Shown here: positions 72-15,461 of the stretch, piece after piece
Numbering within the stretch: position 1 is the first letter of the stretch
Layout of the letters: each line of letters opens with the position of its first letter
IMG/VR virus record: IMGVR_UViG_2617270967_000008
Reading direction: 5' to 3' (one strand)
Origin: a virus
Lineage: Duplodnaviria > Heunggongvirae > Uroviricota > Caudoviricetes
DNA: 23,006 bases
Made by a program: the position numbers and the translations under genes
Notes under the pieces: model-generated
The model's database searches: none
Told to the model about the DNA's origin: nothing
The model's input: the letters and a program-made list of their open reading frames with translations, nothing else

Positions 72-1376
72 CTATGATATGCGCTGAAATAATCCTGCCT
101 GTCTGATACCCGGAGATGATGTCCATAGCATCGGACCACATGCACGCCACGTGCCCGGTAAACGGGTCTCCCCCACATTACCGGAAGCAACCAGGGGAGT
201 ACCATTCGAAAGGCAACATGCAGACAGTGATGAGCCGGCAATGGCTGAGCCCGGTGCCATATCCCCCGAATAACTCGTCGCATAATATGCCGCAAGGACA
301 AAAGAACCGACACCAAACAGTCCGCTGTCAGGACTTCCTGACGGTCCCTGAGGTCCTGCCGGACCTGTGTCTCCCGTATCTCCCTTCGGTCCCTGTGGTC
401 CTGCCGGGCCTGTGTCTCCCGTATCTCCCTTCGGTCCCTGTGGCCCTGCCGGGCCTGCAGCTCCCGCATCCCCTTTAGGTCCCTGTGGTCCTGCCGGGCC
501 TGTGTCTCCCGTATCTCCCTTCGGTCCCTGCGGACCTGCCGGGCCTGTGTCTCCCGTATCTCCTTTTGGCCCCTGAGGCCCTGCCTGACCTGCGGCTCCC
601 GTATCCCCTTTTGGCCCCTGTGGTCCTGCCGGGCCTGTGTCTCCCGTATCTCCCTTCGGCCCCTGTGGTCCTGCCGGGCCTGTGTCTCCCGTATCTCCCT
701 TCGGCCCCTGTGGTCCTGCCGGGCCTGTGTCTCCCGTATCTCCCTTCGGCCCCTGTGGTCCTGCCGGGCCTGTGTCTCCCGTATCCCCTTTCGGCCCCGG
801 CGGTCCGCCCGGGTCACCTTTATCGCCCTTCGGTCCCTGTGGACCTGTTTCTCCCCGTTCTCCCTTTGGCCCCGGCTCACCTTTTGGTCCGACCGCCCCC
901 GTTGCCCCGGCTGGTCCCTGTGCCCCTGTGGCACCCTGTGGACCTGTGTCCCCCTTCTCGCCCGCCGGTCCCCGGGCATTCTCTGCCCGTTCCTTCGCTT
1001 CCTCTGCACTCGCCGCCGACGCTTCAGCACGCTTCAGGATTTCCGCTGCCACCGCTTCCAGCTCTGCAAGCGCTTTCGGGTAATACTGCACCTCATCCTG
1101 TTCCATCAGAAATTTATTCAGCGTTCCCGGCTCAGAATCCGCCTTCACCAGAATGTCACCCACATACGACGGGGCGTACCCTTCCGTGTTCAGCGTCACC
1201 CGGTACCACCCCGGCTCCACATCAAAACTGTAACTGCCGGTTTCCCCCGGCTGCCCCTGCGCCACCGTGGTGACTATCACCGTCTCACTCGTTCGCGTGG
1301 CTTTCAGCTCTATGGTGCAGTCCGGTACCGGTTTTCCTGTACCATCCTTCAGCACACCTGAAATCTTTACTGCCAT
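72..1376 (-). CDS. stf: Side tail fibre protein with lambda Stf-like N-terminus and a long collagen-like Gly-X-Y domain
   Basis: N-terminus [17 protein letters not shown]...PGTLNKFL resembles the lambda Stf N-terminus as I recall it; about 200 residues of [20 protein letters not shown] repeats; start taken at the ATG 1376..1374 (MAVKIS), the track start is an upstream GTG. Confidence 0.8.
365..790. repeat. About nine near-identical 45-bp tandem repeats (unit tgtgtctcccgtatctcccttcggtccctgtggtcctgccgggcc on +) encoding the 15-aa collagen-like unit
   Basis: Direct reading of lines 361-840: the unit recurs head-to-tail with a few point variants. Confidence 0.9.
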
Positions 1377-3459: not shown

Positions 3460-6581
<3,122 letters not shown>

Positions 6582-8772: not shown

Positions 8773-9240
8773 CTAGTTAATACACTGAGTGCGGATATAG
8801 TCCTGCGCCCCTTCCAGTTGCTTCTGCATTGTCATCAACCGCTCTCTGAGGGTGAAATAATCCCGTTCAGCGGTGTCTGCCAGTCGGGGGCCGGTTGCAT
8901 TATCCACGCGGGCGGTGCCGGTGGCTTCACGCACGGAACCTGGACAGGTGGCGTTGATACGCAGGCTGCGGCGACCAGCGGCAACGTCAGCGCGCAGAGT
9001 TTCATTTTCAGCTCTCGCATCGGCTAACTCCTTTGTGTATTTTTCATCCAGCGCAGCAACATCACGCTGACGCTGCTGCATGTCAGTAATGGTTGTGTTT
9101 GCCAGCTCCAGCTCTCTGGCTTTTTTATCGCGCTGCGCTTTGTAGGTGATGGCGTTATCGCGGTAATGATTCAGCCCCAGACTAAGCACACCACAGGCTA
9201 CCAGCAGGACAATAATCACCACACACAGAACACGGTTCAT
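8773..9240 (-). CDS. Rz: Rz i-spanin
   Basis: [16 protein letters not shown]...[15 protein letters not shown]...QKQLEG matches lambda Rz; N-terminal TM; start at ATG 9240 (MNRVLCVV) with a GGTGGTGA RBS. Confidence 0.9.
8835..9020 (-). CDS. Rz1: Rz1 o-spanin lipoprotein, embedded in +1 frame within Rz
   Basis: [25 protein letters not shown]...[30 protein letters not shown] matches lambda Rz1 including lipobox and proline-rich region. Confidence 0.85.
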
Positions 9241-9339
9241 ATCACCACCAACGGATTGCCCAGACCAGAACAGCAATGGCCACAATACGAATGGCAAATG
9301 CCATTGCCCGAATAAGTTCAGCACTCATCTTTTTAAAGT

Positions 9340-9522
9340 TCACGATTTCAGCGCAATGACCAGTTTTGCCAGCCCATACAGTATCGGAGACACAGCGATA
9401 CCAACCGCCACCCACTTAATAGCAAAAGCCAGCGCTCTGCTGATGTCATCAGTTACTGGCGCTTTCAGTTCAAGGCCGTTTTTCATAGTCAACCTCAACA
9501 GAATTCGTTTATACTTTTCCAT
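9340..9522 (-). CDS. Small single-TM membrane protein between endolysin and Rz (function unknown)
   Basis: ATG at 9522 (MEKYKRIL...) preceded by AGGGAGA; hydrophobic FAIKWVAVGIAVSPILYGLAKLVIAL segment. Confidence 0.45.
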   Translation of the reverse strand: MEKYKRILLRLTMKNGLELKAPVTDDISRALAFAIKWVAVGIAVSPILYGLAKLVIALKS

Positions 9523-9550
9523 GTTCTCCCTTGCCTTATCCAAGGTCAGA

Positions 9551-9590
9551 AACACAAAACCCCGCTTGCAGCCAACAAACGGGGTTTTTA
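9551..9590. terminator. Hairpin with flanking T/A runs (weak, bidirectional-looking) between endolysin and the small membrane gene
   Basis: CCCCG...CGGGG stem with a 15-nt loop, TTTTT on + and UUUUGUGUU on minus. Confidence 0.35.
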
Positions 9591-9678: not shown

Positions 9679-10212
9679 TTATCTGTCAATTCCCCAGCAC
9701 GCCAGCGCACTCTCCTGGTCGCGACGGGATACCTGACCGTAACAGTTGTTTGAGCGAATACGGCAGTCTCTGCCACCGTCCTTAATCCACCAGCGAATCG
9801 CTTCGCATGCTCCCCTGCGATCACCTGCATTAATTCGTCTGTAAAACGTCGACGGGAAACACTTACCGGGACCAATGTTGTACGGACAGAATGACGCGAT
9901 CCCCGCTTTCTGGGGTTCGGTCAGCGGCACTCTGATGTTTTTCTCCACCCACGCCAGCGCTTTATCACGCTCAATGGCGTTAACCTGGTCGCATTTTTCC
10001 TTCGACAACTTCATGCCCGGAACGACAGGTTTGCCATCCACCATGATGGCACCACGGCAGATGGTCCAGATACCCGCACCATCACGGTATGCCGTGGTGT
10101 GGTTGCCTTCTTTTTCATCCAGAAACTGGTCGAGAATTTCAGGCGCAGACGCACCAGCGGCAATCAGCGCCAGAACGGCAGCCGACAGGCCGTATCTGAT
10201 TTTTGCGTTCAT
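9679..10212 (-). CDS. SAR-type endolysin (phage lysozyme with N-terminal signal-arrest-release domain)
   Basis: N-terminal weakly hydrophobic Gly/Ala-rich segment (LSAAVLALIAAGASAPEIL) followed by a lysozyme-like catalytic region (EGNHTTAYRDGAGIWTICRG); resembles phage 21 R / K-12 prophage Rrr-type lysozymes. Confidence 0.85.
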   Translation of the reverse strand: MNAKIRYGLSAAVLALIAAGASAPEILDQFLDEKEGNHTTAYRDGAGIWTICRGAIMVDGKPVVPGMKLSKEKCDQVNAIERDKALAWVEKNIRVPLTEPQKAGIASFCPYNIGPGKCFPSTFYRRINAGDRRGACEAIRWWIKDGGRDCRIRSNNCYGQVSRRDQESALACWGIDR

Positions 10213-10337
10213 GGATATTTATCAGGATTTATCGGTTCCGAATCCCTGGATATGTTAAGTCTTCAGCCCGCCAGTGGTGGGCACTGGCGTAAACTCAACA
10301 ATGCGAGATGGCTGCCTCGCAAAGATAAGGAACAGAT

Positions 10338-10613
10338 ATGAGTGAAGAAAATAGCAAAGAGAATACAGCACTTTTTGACAGAATTTTTACTCTTGAGTTA
10401 CAGGTCGGTTTTCTTCTCCCAAAGATAATCAAAGCAATGGATGCACTAAGTAAAAATAACGCTGTGTCAGATTACCTGATCGCCGAAATGGAACATCTAA
10501 TTAAAGAAATACCAAAGACAGTTGCTCGTGATGATAAAAGATTCCTCAAGGCTGCTGAAGATGCTCTTTCAACAGTGAAGCGCAGCTTAGATGCGCCGCG
10601 CGATCAAGAATAG
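10338..10613 (+). CDS. Hypothetical 91-aa helical protein, AT-rich, convergent with and overlapping the 3' end of the 176-aa gene
   Basis: ATG 10338 with AAGGAA 7 nt upstream; about 38% GC; overlaps 10546-10613 with the minus-strand gene. Confidence 0.5.
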   Translation: MSEENSKENTALFDRIFTLELQVGFLLPKIIKAMDALSKNNAVSDYLIAEMEHLIKEIPKTVARDDKRFLKAAEDALSTVKRSLDAPRDQE

Positions 10614-11076
10614 TTTCTTTCATTTCATCTGCTGCAAGCACCTCATTTTTTGTTGGGGTGCTTTTTTTCAATTCAGCGATATAGCACTCCAGTTTTTCAA
10701 TGCGTGATTCAATATCATCGTTTTCTGACCGCAATGCCGTCGGTGGCGTCTTCAGAGAACCAGTAATTATTCCCGGTAGTTTTCCTCTGTAGGTTATCAA
10801 CACATCCTGCGCCTCTAAAATTATGGGGCGCTTTTCCGGCAACGGACCATCCCCTTCACATAACCCGGCAGCAACATCCATGAAAAACTGCTTCGCCTGC
10901 TTTTTCGCCTCAGCTTCGTAAAACTCCAGCGTGGCATCTTCAGTACGGTCAAGACTAATCGCCACATCTGGCAACAACAGTGACGGATACCCACCAATTT
11001 CCAGTGCCACAGTAACAGTAATCTTATTCGGGTAATTATTTATCCCTTTAACAACCAGTTCGTATTTTTTCTTCAT
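10546..11076 (-). CDS. Hypothetical 176-aa soluble protein inserted between holin and endolysin
   Basis: ATG 11076 lies 4 nt after the holin stop with GGGGAGAG upstream (translational coupling); no TM or signal peptide; predicted coiled-coil C-terminus; no family recognised. Confidence 0.6.
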   Translation of the reverse strand: MKKKYELVVKGINNYPNKITVTVALEIGGYPSLLLPDVAISLDRTEDATLEFYEAEAKKQAKQFFMDVAAGLCEGDGPLPEKRPIILEAQDVLITYRGKLPGIITGSLKTPPTALRSENDDIESRIEKLECYIAELKKSTPTKNEVLAADEMKETILDRAAHLSCASLLKEHLQQP

Positions 11077-11080
11077 CGCT

Positions 11081-11296
11081 TTACTCTCCCCGCGCCGCCT
11101 TACGACGGTCCTCTCTGATTTTGAAATACAGGTTAGTCAGATATGTCAGCAGCCCAAACAGCAGACTTCCCAGTACGCCTATTGCCGCCCACTGAGACGG
11201 GGAAACCCTGTCCAGCAGCTGCAGGAACCAGTAGCCCGTCCCCACCGCTGACGTGGTGTATGACACACCTGTTGTGATTTTTTCCATCTGGTACAT
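11081..11296 (-). CDS. Class II holin/pinholin of the phage 21 S type, with dual-start motif (M1...M4)
   Basis: 71 aa, ...[50 protein letters not shown], resembles S21 pinholin and K-12 EssD-type holins; two TM segments. Confidence 0.85.
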
Positions 11297-11371: not shown

Positions 11372-11641
11372 TTACATCATCATTTCGCCGTCAGGCTGAG
11401 GCTCACTGCTACCATCAGGCTGAGACCCGACGCCATCTGAAACAGCACTGTCATCCGCAATGCCTTCCGGCTCCGGAACAGTCGGTGCGCCCAGCAGTTC
11501 ATCCAGAATGGCATCCACTTCTGCATCAAGACGCGCCTCAAGGTTCTGCCGAAGTTGCTGTTTCAGTGCGCTTCTGACTTCTTCAGAGCGCAGGACTTCC
11601 TTCACTGCTTCAGCAGTGACCAGCGATTTTATTTCTGACAT
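11372..11641 (-). CDS. Hypothetical acidic 89-aa protein upstream of the holin
   Basis: ORF from ATG 11641 (MSEIKSLV...); helical N-terminus, acidic Pro/Glu/Asp-rich tail; weak RBS. Confidence 0.4.
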   Translation of the reverse strand: MSEIKSLVTAEAVKEVLRSEEVRSALKQQLRQNLEARLDAEVDAILDELLGAPTVPEPEGIADDSAVSDGVGSQPDGSSEPQPDGEMMM

Positions 11642-11678
11642 GGTATTTTCTCGTTGAAAGGTGTTGTTAAGAAAGTTG

Positions 11679-11861
11679 CTACGGAATGAGAGGCTCTTCG
11701 GGTTTTGTTCCGGCTGACTGACTGGCACTGATTTTCTCAGCGGCCCTTTTGTCAATCTGCCTGCGCCAGAAATCTCTCACGACTCTGTACCCACCAGAAA
11801 GAAGATACAGCACACAAACTGCTGTACAGAAATACAACATAATCAGCTGTAAAAATGTCAT
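11679..11861 (-). CDS. Hypothetical 60-aa membrane peptide
   Basis: ORF with hydrophobic N-terminus (LIMLYFCTAVCVLYLLSG); overlaps the next ORF in another frame. Confidence 0.3.
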   Translation of the reverse strand: MTFLQLIMLYFCTAVCVLYLLSGGYRVVRDFWRRQIDKRAAEKISASQSAGTKPEEPLIP

Positions 11862-12009: not shown

Positions 12010-13953
12010 TTACGGGTTATTCACTTCCACTGTTATACTTTCAATCAGCACCGGGTAAGTCGCATTTTTAGTGATATCGGTCACGCGCAACTTGTCTGCC
12101 GTAAACGTGCCGACCGGAGACTGCGACAGCATGAATGGTGTCCCGTCCTTACCATCAATGACCGGCGTCACCTCAATACTGTTGTTACCGGCAAAACGGA
12201 AGCCCAGCGTATGCCATTCGTTATTAAATGCGCCGAATGACCCCAGCTTCGTGTTCTGCGCCGTGTTTCCTTTGTGATACATCACGTTAAGGTCTGTGGC
12301 ATCGCTCTGTACGTAGAACGATGCCAGCAGGTTATGACCGGCATTACCTTCCAGTGTGACCCCCTGAGGCAGGGAAGAAACCGGCCAGTACAGCGCCAGT
12401 GCGTACTGATTAGCCGTAAGCGCGCCATCGAGTTTAAAACGACAACTGACAAGACCACCTTTACCCAGCAGGTCCGCACCATTACCAGCATCATGCTCAA
12501 GGTACCAGGGGGCTCTTCCTGTTTCCTTGGTCAGTTTCATTGCCTTACCCCCGCTGGCTCCGGCATCATCCACGATTTGAGCCTTGCCACCTCCGGCAGC
12601 CCAACCCTGTGGTGTCAACCGTCCTTCAGACTCAGATGCCCGGTAAGCAAATAGCGTACTCATCGTCGTGGTGTCTGCGGGTGGCGTGGACGGTTTTGAT
12701 GGTGTATCAGGTGACGGCTTCTCATCCGGTGGTGTCACGGTCTGCCCGCGCATCAGTTCAGCCGTGCGCCCTGCATGGAGCATAATAGCTGAGGCCAGAC
12801 GGTCTGAAATGACGCCCCTGCGTGCCCATGAGCTGAAATGGCTGTCACGCTGTGTCGAAACAAAACTGCCCTGGGTTCGGGATGCTGCACCGTAATACCC
12901 GACAGCCACAATATCCGGGTCTTCCGCCGGAGCATTCGTTGGCGTGCTCTGTCCATTCTCATCCGTCAGGAACGGTACAAAGAAAATATTCTGTGCTTCC
13001 CTGCCCTTGTAACCGCCATATACCGCCTCATATTTATCGGCGTTAAGATTCTTCCAGTAATACGTGGTGTCACCACAAATCCACGGCACCGAGCCAGCAC
13101 TTCCGCCAACACACTGTGCAGAATATGCAGCCATATCAGCCCTGAACTGCTGCACCATAGTGGTAAACAGGCCGCTGTGCTGCTGACTGCCGTCCGCAAG
13201 ATCATTTTCCCCCTGCATCCATACCACGGCCAGAAGCCTGTTTTTCGGGTTCTTCGACAGCGCCGCTTTTGTACGGAAGAGAAAATCCTGATACAGCGGT
13301 TTACCCACTCCCCAGCGGGCTGAATTTGCCGATGCGCCAGACGTTTCGCTGAACGTGCCGTCATTACCCACGGTTAAACCAGACCCGCCACGGCAACAGG
13401 GCACCAGAAGAATCCCGGCATTCTGCGGGATATAAGGCAGAAGTTTTTTGGCAATATGCAGCCCCTGACCGACAGTCCCGTACTGGCCCTTACTCAGGTC
13501 TGCATGAGGATGGTTAAGTGCGCTCATGTCCTGAACATCATGCAGACAGTGGTCTGCCGGAATAACGTCATTGTATGCACAGGTATCACCACCCGGCGTC
13601 ACAGTGCTGCGACGGGCCAGCTGCTTAATACGGGAGTCAGGGCGATCATAGGTCTCCGGCAGAGGAAGCCCCTCACCATAGGCCATACCGTTCGACTGCC
13701 CGGCCAGGGGAATAACGTAGTAATACTCCGGTTCAGTGGTAGCCACTCCCGGAGAGCCACCAGCCCCTGTGTCGGGCACAACCACAGGCGTGGTCACATC
13801 ACCCTCTGCGGCAATGGCCTGCATCAGTGTATAAGGCGTGATAGCCACAGGACTGCCAAACGGCTGCCAGCCTTCCTTCAGTTTTTGTGTCAGTCGCTCC
13901 GCAAGGTCTGACGGCGACGCCGCCCTGACCACGTCATAGTGTTTAAATGCCAT
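12010..13953 (-). CDS. nanS: Prophage sialate O-acetylesterase (NanS-p-like; the large ORF that follows stx in Stx phages)
   Basis: N-terminus MAFKHYDVVRAASPSDLAERLTQKLKEGWQPFGSP is the characteristic start of these esterases as I recall; about 647 aa; strong RBS AAGGGGAGGA before ATG 13953. Confidence 0.8.
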   Translation of the reverse strand: MAFKHYDVVRAASPSDLAERLTQKLKEGWQPFGSPVAITPYTLMQAIAAEGDVTTPVVVPDTGAGGSPGVATTEPEYYYVIPLAGQSNGMAYGEGLPLPETYDRPDSRIKQLARRSTVTPGGDTCAYNDVIPADHCLHDVQDMSALNHPHADLSKGQYGTVGQGLHIAKKLLPYIPQNAGILLVPCCRGGSGLTVGNDGTFSETSGASANSARWGVGKPLYQDFLFRTKAALSKNPKNRLLAVVWMQGENDLADGSQQHSGLFTTMVQQFRADMAAYSAQCVGGSAGSVPWICGDTTYYWKNLNADKYEAVYGGYKGREAQNIFFVPFLTDENGQSTPTNAPAEDPDIVAVGYYGAASRTQGSFVSTQRDSHFSSWARRGVISDRLASAIMLHAGRTAELMRGQTVTPPDEKPSPDTPSKPSTPPADTTTMSTLFAYRASESEGRLTPQGWAAGGGKAQIVDDAGASGGKAMKLTKETGRAPWYLEHDAGNGADLLGKGGLVSCRFKLDGALTANQYALALYWPVSSLPQGVTLEGNAGHNLLASFYVQSDATDLNVMYHKGNTAQNTKLGSFGAFNNEWHTLGFRFAGNNSIEVTPVIDGKDGTPFMLSQSPVGTFTADKLRVTDITKNATYPVLIESITVEVNNP

Positions 13954-14040
13954 TATTCCTCCCCTTTCCGGGATTTTCCTCAACAGTTGCGGGCCACGGT
14001 CCGGCTACACGGAGAATCAAAAGAGGAGAACCGCAGCCCG

Positions 14041-14133: not shown

Positions 14134-14165
14134 CCCGCCCGCCACTCACTGCGGGCTTTTTTTTG
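14134..14165 (+). terminator. Plus-strand hairpin followed by T8
   Basis: CCCGC-cactcact-GCGGG then TTTTTTTT on the + strand; the opposite orientation to the surrounding genes. Confidence 0.5.
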
Positions 14166-14171
14166 CCCATA

Positions 14172-14199
14172 GAAAAGCCCCTCCGGAGAGGGGCTTTTT
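14172..14199. terminator. Bidirectional rho-independent terminator
   Basis: AGCCCCTC-cgga-GAGGGGCT flanked by AAAA and TTTT. Confidence 0.65.
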
Positions 14200-14439
14200 A
14201 CAGTGGTAGTGTAGACAATTTTGCATGGTGCCGGGTGCCTCCCGGTGAGTTCAGTATCAGCACCTGAACCCGCACAGAAAGGATAAGGGTCGGTGACAAA
14301 ACACCAGTTGCTGATTGCCCCTCCGCACAGGGGGATTCACCATGCCAGTTTCTTTTAACAAACTCCCCGCAAACCAGACAACAGTCAACCGCCTGAATTG
14401 TGAGGTATTTAAAAATTTCAACGGGTAACTGATACCCTG

Positions 14440-15211: not shown

Positions 15212-15288
15212 TGGCGCGTTGTACTGGATTCGAACCAGTGACCGATTGCTTAGAAGGCAATTGCTCTGTCCGGCTGAGCTAACAACGC
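15212..15288 (-). tRNA. tRNA-Arg (anticodon UCU)
   Basis: Hand-folded cloverleaf: acceptor GCGTTGT/ACAACGC, D-arm GCTC/GAGC, anticodon loop CTTCTAA, T-arm ACTGG-TTCGAAT-CCAGT, discriminator G, encoded CCA. Confidence 0.85.
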
Positions 15289-15304
15289 AGGATACAGATA
15301 ATGA

Positions 15305-15378
15305 ACCGCCTTCGGGGATCCGAACTCCGCGCAACCAGCTTCGAAGGCTGGCGCTCTTTCCTGATGAGCTAATGGCGG
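15305..15378 (-). tRNA. tRNA-Arg-like (anticodon UCG) with non-canonical features; possibly degenerate
   Basis: Hand fold: D-arm GCTC/GAGC, anticodon arm CCAGC-CTTCGAA-GCTGG; T-loop TTCGGAT with one A-C mismatch in the T-stem; acceptor 6/7 paired, starts C1-G72, no encoded CCA. Confidence 0.5.
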
Positions 15379-15385
15379 TATGTGA

Positions 15386-15461
15386 TGGTGGCCCTTGCTG
15401 GATTTGAACCAGCGACCTGGCGATTATGAGTCGCTCGCTCTCACCACTGAGCTAAAGGGCC
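15386..15461 (-). tRNA. tRNA with anticodon CAU, resembling E. coli tRNA-Ile2 (ileX-like) rather than tRNA-Met
   Basis: Hand fold: acceptor GGCCCTT/AAGGGCC, anticodon loop CTCATAA, T-arm GCTGG-TTCAAAT-CCAGC, encoded CCA; overall resemblance to ileX as recalled. Confidence 0.8.

Follow-up and report, generated by a model that had tools for sequence, protein, structure and literature searches.

A gene antisense to the late operon and its overlapping partner, fused to a YdfR-family gene between the holin and endolysin of an Escherichia coli lambdoid prophage

The window analysed here, 23,006 nucleotides of DNA from the IMG/VR virus record IMGVR_UViG_2617270967_000008, comes from an Escherichia coli lambdoid prophage with its late genes on the minus strand. 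Between the holin and endolysin genes lie a 176-amino acid (aa) open reading frame (ORF) on the late strand and, convergent with it on the plus strand, a 91-aa ORF which we call gene A. Merged here with a gene of the YdfR/DUF1327 family is a ~0.5-kb cassette (10213 to ~10740), made up of a leader, gene A, the terminator of gene A and a partner coding segment which we call B. The central genes of the locus are:

11081-11296, minus strand: S21-type class II holin (pinholin; PF04971, E 9e-33), stop codon TAA
10546-11076 (stop included), minus strand: 176-aa ORF, YdfR/DUF1327 plus B tail, stop codon TGA at 10546-10548
10741-11076, minus strand: YdfR/DUF1327 N-terminal domain (PF07041), residues 1-112
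10546-10740, minus strand: C-terminal coil and B tail, residues 113-176, with homology to stand-alone B genes
10338-10613, plus strand: gene A, 91-aa ORF, convergent on the 176-aa ORF
9679-10212, minus strand: signal-arrest-release (SAR) endolysin (PF00959, E 3.3e-24)

The ATG of the 176-aa ORF is preceded by the holin stop codon and four nucleotides (AGCG), and its Shine-Dalgarno sequence (SD, GGGGAGAG at 11084-11091) lies within the 3' end of the holin gene (junction GGCGCGGGGAGAGTAAAGCGATGAAG). The ORF overlaps gene A by 68 bp (10546-10613). Gene A is AT-rich (39.5% GC vs 52.3% for the window), encodes an acidic protein (pI 5.2) and has its own SD, AAGGA, 6 nt ahead of its ATG. The left edge of the cassette adjoins the start codon of the SAR endolysin, and homology to other genera starts at ~10217-10244. 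Neither protein contains a membrane segment, the highest Kyte-Doolittle means over 19 residues being 1.30 for the 176-aa and 1.18 for the 91-aa protein (1.70-2.04 for the holin, the SAR endolysin and a 71-aa membrane ORF further downstream), and neither has a signal peptide. In all these respects the description given by the initial annotation, made from the sequence alone, is confirmed, namely a 4-nt gap with a ribosome binding site, a convergent AT-rich gene with a 68-bp overlap, and two proteins lacking membrane segments and signal peptides; the interpretation attached to it is supported in part.

That annotation recognised no family for either protein, which proved incorrect, as both fall in PHROG families (phrog_2091 for the 176-aa protein, phrog_18136 for gene A), and by its sequence the 176-aa protein belongs to a known family which is very common but has no known function: Pfam DUF1327 (PF07041) covers residues 1-112 with 150.6 bits (cutoff 25, E 1.5e-44), and homologues of the protein are labelled 'YdfR family protein' in RefSeq. 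Both PHROG families, like DUF1327, are of unknown function, in agreement with the view that the pair had no described role. Nor is it odd to find a gene between holin and endolysin, which had been taken to be normally adjacent. Such a gene is ordinary for this phage group, since in the Qin prophage of E. coli K-12 the class II holin gene essQ is followed after the same 4-nt gap by ydfR, and then by rrrQ, the start of which overlaps the end of ydfR, and since matches to the 176-aa query, mostly to its YdfR domain, were present in 3085 of 5426 complete E. coli genomes (57%). Carriers of DUF1327/YdfR include K-12, BL21-type strains and most Shiga toxin (Stx) phages, and the complete arrangement of the window was found in only 43 of the 5426 genomes. 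K-12 YdfR shares with the window protein the DUF1327 domain (47% identity across residues 1-74), the slot and the coupling to the holin, but is only 103 aa long and has no adjoining antisense gene, whereas the window protein carries a 64-residue coil and B tail. Two-hybrid and pull-down experiments have shown that K-12 YdfR binds RNase E through its residues 1-72, the part of RNase E that is bound being the N-terminal, catalytic half; RNA co-purifies with the protein, and few transcripts change when it is overproduced (PMC13232886).

The AlphaFold model of the 176-aa protein, built on 28 sequences, is poor (predicted local distance difference test score (pLDDT) 59.7), with a beta-beta-beta-alpha core of moderate confidence (residues 1-73), a disordered linker (74-116) and a helical hairpin (118-173), and found no match at E ≤ 0.001 among solved structures using Foldseek. 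The YdfR N-domain part of this model (residues 1-73, low confidence) gave weak, partial and non-significant Foldseek matches to double-stranded RNA-binding domains (dsRBD3 of ADAR1, probability 0.85, 39 columns, E 0.4), worth mentioning solely in view of the RNA that co-purifies with K-12 YdfR.

Gene A belongs to a small family, as an exhaustive profile search of 1.8 billion representatives retrieved no more than nine clusters (50% identity). Homologues of 85 aa with 58-72% identity are present in Salmonella, Enterobacter and Citrobacter, and more distant homologues were also found. The Salmonella copies of gene A are flanked by tail genes L and M or follow the tape-measure gene, those of Enterobacter, phage CharmingMan and a metagenome contig have the lysis region on one side and terminase genes on the other, the Citrobacter copy is upstream of the holin, and a copy from one distant lineage is located between LysC and terminase. 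At every locus examined, gene A and the late genes around it are on opposite strands. The pair of A and B is thus not specific for lysis, and the earlier suggestion of a lysis-timing or exclusion module belonging to the lysis cassette was not supported; conservation of the pair as a unit was found in several enterobacterial genera, and is not confined to the interval between holin (S) and endolysin (R). The protein-level conservation in other genera indicates that both ORFs are real genes and more than chance reading frames. A tblastn search of 50,697 phage records with gene A returned CharmingMan and two remnants, and nothing else. We also considered whether STMMW_20121 of Salmonella phage ST64B, an antisense locus expressed in lysogeny, could be gene A, for which the same search gave no evidence.

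AlphaFold2 predicts a three-helix bundle for the product of gene A (pLDDT 75). When A, B and the two alternative cargo proteins A' and A'' introduced below were scanned with Pfam, NCBIfam and PADLOC, there were chance-level matches only, a PDB sequence search with A and B found nothing, and a peptide-pattern scan of genome contigs yielded no confirmed locus. Of the profile and structure searches recommended by the initial annotation, a profile search thus identified the family of the 176-aa protein (DUF1327), and there was no informative Pfam, PDB or Foldseek match for gene A.

According to the alignments, the true partner of gene A is only the C-terminal ~60 residues of the 176-aa protein, so the pair originally described is real and recurs in other prophages, but involves the C-terminal third of this protein and not the whole. 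In Salmonella, Enterobacter and Citrobacter, B is a stand-alone gene of 51-59 aa on the late strand, convergent on gene A and equipped with a strong SD and ATG, and its product is homologous to residues ~120-176 of the window protein. The window copy of B has no start of its own, but is the tail of a protein consisting of the YdfR N-domain, a coil and B. In the window and in the stand-alone copies alike the terminator of gene A sits within the B reading frame, and the convergent overlap reported by the initial annotation is conserved, with a length of precisely 68 bp in the copies from E. coli, Salmonella, Enterobacter and Citrobacter (65-68 nt of the A 3' end overall).

Several features of the sequences suggest that B is likely to be translated. 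A strong SD and ATG precede B in five stand-alone lineages, and its frame is preserved over lengths of 51, 54, 57 and 59 aa, with differences in the middle part being multiples of 3 nt. In the 12 N-terminal codons outside the overlap and the terminator, variable sites are distributed over codon positions 1, 2 and 3 as 2, 3 and 6, and B-like proteins were detected independently in the protein database. Furthermore, the partner of one distant A homologue (<50% identity) is a B of 55 aa (hhalign 90%, E 1.6e-6), and that of another (<50%) is a 144-aa protein with a YdfR-like N-domain and a B tail, both of which align with the YdfR profile (85.5%, E 5.7e-6). B was the convergent partner of A in all lineages examined except the most distant one.

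The alignments across genera also delineate a conserved DNA unit from ~10217 to 10668, which includes the leader, ORF and terminator of gene A:

10213-10337, plus strand: leader of gene A, from alignments across genera
10223-10248, plus strand: inverted repeat CAGGATT/AATCCCTG in the leader
10244-10256, plus strand: -10-like element CCTGGnTAnnnT (TATGTT at 10251-10256), invariant in the leader
10264-10268, plus strand: conserved leader motif CAGCC
10269-10289, plus strand: hairpin H2, CGCCAGTG-GTGGG-CACTGGCG, predicted with RNAalifold
10303-10320, plus strand: hairpin H3, GCGAG-ATGGCTGC-CTCGC, with conserved loop motif GATGGCTG, adjoining the SD
10327-10331, plus strand: SD of gene A, AAGGA
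10636-10668, plus strand: intrinsic terminator of gene A (10-bp stem and T7 run) inside the B coding sequence, from a terminator scan

With eight sequences RNAalifold predicted eight pairs in H2, none of which is broken and two of which show compensatory changes, and the U-G wobbles in H2 become A-C mismatches if read on the opposite strand. The terminator has a predicted folding energy of -18.6 kcal/mol (z = -3.98), and the changes in its stem are compensatory among the Enterobacter and Citrobacter copies. When folded as a single sequence the leader is no better than its shuffles (z = -0.86), so that a small number of compensatory or wobble changes is all that speaks for an RNA structure. With Rfam 15, the leader/terminator cassette of the window had no match at the gathering threshold, and chance-level matches only at E ≤ 5. 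The promoter-like signal in the leader consists of an invariant TAnnnT with a weak -35, and is located upstream of the 5' hairpin in all cargo types. A sigma-54-type reading of a TGGCTG motif was rejected by eye, as its spacing is wrong.

Some additional observations concern the leader in other phages. Stx phages with a 114-aa YdfR and no cargo (L003:3606-3690) have kept CCTGGnTAnnnT and part of H2 upstream of the endolysin start, from where transcription would run antisense into ydfR; the short YdfR form of 114 aa itself looks like a deletion between GGTGG repeats (positions 10276-10280 and 10742-10746 in the window). The leader motifs CAGCC (10264-10268) and GGATGGCTG(AT) (10308-10315) are kept at three loci where the A protein is <50% identical (L052, L054 and L055), and are better conserved in these distant leaders than the coding sequence of gene A. 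RNAalifold pairs the two motifs as a long-range helix, which competes with H3.

The C-terminal extensions of YdfR proteins are nested and contain remnants of earlier cassettes. Forms of 114, 176, 211, 296, 305 and 329 aa have a common N-domain and a short coil (DDIESRIEKLE), and diverge afterwards. Residues 113-176 of the window protein recur in frame within the 211-, 305- and 329-aa forms, where gene A has been lost. At the DNA level the long forms are homologous from precisely 10549 on, one base past the stop codon, homology to the 114-aa forms starts at 10740/10741, and the sequence from 10289 to 10548 is specific to genomes carrying gene A. In phage PhiR5_1 the common leader is present up to H2 and is followed by an unrelated 86-aa ORF with its own terminator (A'), after which there is a 65-bp remnant of the 3' end of A together with the A terminator; the 211-aa YdfR of this phage reads the antisense of the A' terminator and the A remnants, resulting in a B tail and then a B' tail. 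YdfR forms with the B' tail alone also exist (P0155, P0147). A third unrelated cargo, A'', follows the same -10-like element in E. coli, and in Citrobacter pairs with a 63-aa B''' in which the N-terminal half is as in B and the tail is different; one Salmonella prophage has retained B''' beside a deleted A''. The alternative cargo genes are:

L001:3725-3985: A' (phrog_2572)
L006:2255-2527: A'' (phrog_2411)
L047:3179-3430: noted together with A' and A''

Using hhalign, no relationship was detected among A, A' and A'' or between A and the phage protein Tab discussed below, which makes A' and A'' analogues of A rather than homologues. In complete E. coli genomes A is present in 29-45, A' in 294-422 (including E. 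coli B derivatives) and A'' in ~550, and DNA of the B tail is found in 135 genomes, compared with 29-45 for A-specific DNA. In a common allele an 87-bp deletion takes away the SD and first 26 codons of A and leaves the 176-aa gene intact.

The arrangement of A and B resembles that of prophage pairs for defence and counter-defence reported by others in 2024. Pseudomonas phage JBD26 encodes Tab (83 aa) antisense to its late operon, from a separate promoter, while atab is a late-strand gene with coupling to the gene for the small terminase; Tab is bound and neutralised by Anti-Tab, phages with tab but without atab are not viable, and Tab, which blocks tail assembly in other phages and targets the tape-measure protein, is always encoded between TerS and TerL (PMC10884400). 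The JBD26 record shows the two genes as convergent with a 47-bp 3' overlap (L046 378-629 plus strand, 583-834 minus strand). Both systems thus combine a small antisense gene (83 aa vs 85-91 aa) with a convergent late-strand partner which overlaps its 3' end and is coupled to the preceding late gene, and no protein of either pair has a known domain. They differ in that A/B occupies many late-operon positions and not just the one between TerS and TerL, that B is only 51-59 aa and often fused to DUF1327, and that the terminator of A lies inside B. In the E. coli phage phi80, taiEcA is antisense within the Q-dependent late operon, between lysis and packaging genes, and atiEcA is next to it on the late strand; expression of Q reduces Tai, and tai/ati form a noncontiguous operon (PMC11364771). 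For Tha/Ith of Staphylococcus aureus phages, opposing transcription switches the pair between lysogeny and lysis (PMC11087260). These two systems also have an antisense gene in the late operon with a small late-strand partner gene, but Tai is 204 aa and its gene overlaps ati head-to-head (L045 5366-5980 minus strand, 5961-6191 plus strand), whereas A and B overlap tail-to-tail.

Gene A also has the properties of a moron, as it has its own terminator and a deviant composition and is absent from most related Stx phages. Lambda bor and HK97 gp15 are likewise small AT-rich genes among late genes with their own terminator and a presence that varies among close relatives, and bor is also antisense to late transcription. 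Unlike gene A, which encodes a cytoplasmic protein, has an overlapping partner and shares its leader with unrelated cargos, these are single genes for envelope proteins. Taken by their sequences, A and B form an undescribed family with an architecture already known from other phages.

We give about an even chance to the explanation that A is an accessory protein made in the lysogen and B its late-expressed antidote, the two forming a defence/self-immunity cassette fused to YdfR. The functional side of this proposal is based on analogy with Tab/anti-Tab, Tai/Ati and Tha/Ith, and its architectural part is far more secure than its functional part. In the lysogen, a weak promoter of its own would drive gene A, the product of which would most likely act as an anti-phage factor. 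After induction, late transcription antiterminated by Q would run antisense through A and silence it, and would also yield B, in this prophage as the tail of a YdfR protein translated right after the holin. Binding of B to A would then neutralise A and keep the phage from inhibiting itself. Orphan B tails may protect phages against lysogens carrying A, and the YdfR N-domain may add a component at the RNA level, possibly via RNase E.

A number of results weigh against this explanation. The most distant A homologue (L055) faces a 61-aa ORF which is not recognisably B, and the conservation of B is partly forced by its overlap with A and by the terminator hairpin. At one IMG/VR locus (L018) A is intact and B is frameshifted in an A7 run, for which the model would predict self-harm unless there is a sequencing error or the prophage is dead; the frameshift could reflect sequencing error, decay or phase variation. 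Neither A nor B matched a PADLOC defence family, and Foldseek comparison of the gene A model with the PDB retrieved only generic helical bundles (best E = 3) and no informative fold. A promoter scan of the plus strand upstream of gene A gave no consensus sigma-70 promoter and, together with the lack of an Rfam family and the unexceptional leader fold, this means that a promoter and leader function for gene A is something we can only infer from the sequence. Finally, BLASTP and hhalign revealed no sequence or profile similarity of A and B to Tab/anti-Tab, and there was no alignment with TaiEcA/AtiEcA at E ≤ 100, from which it follows that A and B are not members of those families and that the resemblance is architectural only. 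As a separate observation, the homopolymer in which the L018 frameshift occurred corresponds to 10659-10665 of the window (T7 on the plus strand, A7 in the B frame) and forms the tail of the terminator inside the B frame.

Three other explanations were considered. Gene A could be a lone moron, with the B tail arising from read-through of the antisense of the A terminator and 3' end until a chance stop after displacement of the ydfR 3' end, in which case the conservation of B would be a by-product of the constraints on A and the hairpin. This would fit with the label 'YdfR family, incomplete, missing C-terminus' given to the 176-aa form by the NCBI annotation pipeline PGAP, which also counts against the defence/self-immunity explanation above, and with the junction of unique DNA coinciding with the stop codon of the 176-aa ORF, with the pLDDT <50 of linker residues 74-116 and of the last residues in the model, and with the span of the A overlap and hairpin, which cover most of B. 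We nevertheless consider it unlikely, as B exists as a stand-alone gene with a strong SD and ATG in five lineages and keeps its frame through insertions and deletions, varies preferentially at third positions in its unconstrained N-terminal codons, occurs beside A homologues of <50% identity, in one case as an independent fusion to a YdfR-like domain, and has kept its frame in those YdfR forms (211, 305 and 329 aa) that have lost A. Accidental read-through as the origin of the B tail was downgraded once the stand-alone B genes and the distant YdfR-like fusion had been found.

Regulation could also take place at the RNA level, comparable to lambda oop/cII, with the A transcript acting as antisense RNA to the S-ydfR-R message, or to tail or terminase messages elsewhere, in order to tune late expression or to exclude related superinfecting phages, and with YdfR and RNase E aiding the processing of duplexes. 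The A-sense and late transcripts would be complementary across at least 120 nt, the -10-like element and H2 are kept even in the cargo-less phages, the antisense RNA STnc6030 within the late genes of phage BTP1 mediates exclusion, and for K-12 YdfR binding to the N-terminal half of RNase E and co-purification of RNA have been described (PMC13232886). This is distinctly improbable given that A is conserved as a protein, with the substitutions at 58-72% identity keeping the frame and helix pattern where the antisense target differs, that the target would be a different one in each genomic context, and that few transcripts were affected by YdfR overproduction (PMC13232886). A dedicated lysis-timing, antiholin or toxin/antitoxin-like pair belonging to the lysis cassette, close to what the initial annotation suggested (lysis timing or toxin/antitoxin), is in our view very improbable. 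The translational coupling of the 176-aa gene to the holin, the presence of YdfR genes between S and R in thousands of prophages and the location of several A/B copies next to lysis genes are in line with such a role, but there are also A/B copies near packaging genes and, far from lysis genes, amid tail genes, and many functional Stx phages have a 114-aa YdfR without A or B. With regard to the proteins themselves, there is no membrane segment, hydrophobic or signal peptide or similarity to holins in either, no toxin-like fold, and no match to toxin, antitoxin or defence families in Pfam, NCBIfam or PADLOC.

Returning to the defence/self-immunity cassette, the alternative cargos allow for a broader version, which we put forward tentatively and consider possible rather than probable. 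A/B, A'/B' and A''/B''' would be exchangeable prophage cassettes for defence and self-immunity, and their conserved flanks would serve as recombination handles, with the shared leader (the -10-like element, the 5' hairpin and GATGGCTG) on one side and the N-terminal coil of B with the embedded terminator on the other. The gap between ydfR and R, together with equivalent sites in late operons, would then be a defence hot spot in about a fifth of E. coli genomes, and YdfR a carrier that delivers the antidote at lysis, possibly via RNase E.

The remaining late genes around the locus are as follows:

11679-11861, minus strand: DUF1378, late gene of lambdoid prophage
11372-11755, minus strand: DUF826, late gene of lambdoid prophage
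9340-9555, minus strand: 71-aa membrane ORF (phrog_1115, family of unknown function)
8773-9324 and 8835-9020, minus strand: Rz and Rz1

The 71-aa ORF, located between endolysin and Rz, has a C-terminal membrane segment (Kyte-Doolittle mean 2.04), and just upstream of it on the late strand is a strong terminator-like hairpin (14 pairs and a T-run, 9556-9588, minus strand). Further upstream, the 657-aa ORF at 12010-13983 (minus strand) corresponds to a gene named SASA-family carbohydrate esterase (NanS-p-like) in the matching G1/2 prophage, and three tRNA genes are located downstream of the Q region (15215-15461, minus strand). Between the tRNA cluster and the esterase gene there is a full-length Rfam match to the small RNA STnc100 (14165-14374, minus strand, 145.6 bits). 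The gap between tRNAs and esterase ORF (~840 bp without STnc100) seems too small for an stx operon, and the prophage thus looks to be related to Stx phages but stx-negative. A match to the sok antitoxin RNA (RF01794, 19613-19788, minus strand, 112.4 bits) indicates that there is a hok/sok type I toxin-antitoxin locus in the early or nin region.

The linkage of the variable YdfR C-terminus to antisense cargo provides a concrete and testable hypothesis for DUF1327, a common gene without an assigned role, and if true would explain the nested YdfR lengths which are flagged as pseudogenes by annotation pipelines. If A-type genes are defence factors with late antidotes, this would add a new sequence family and two more candidate cargos (A' and A'') to the immunity pairs organised as noncontiguous operons. 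As the slot is in the lysis region of Stx-type phages, its content may affect phage release and the competition between Stx prophages.

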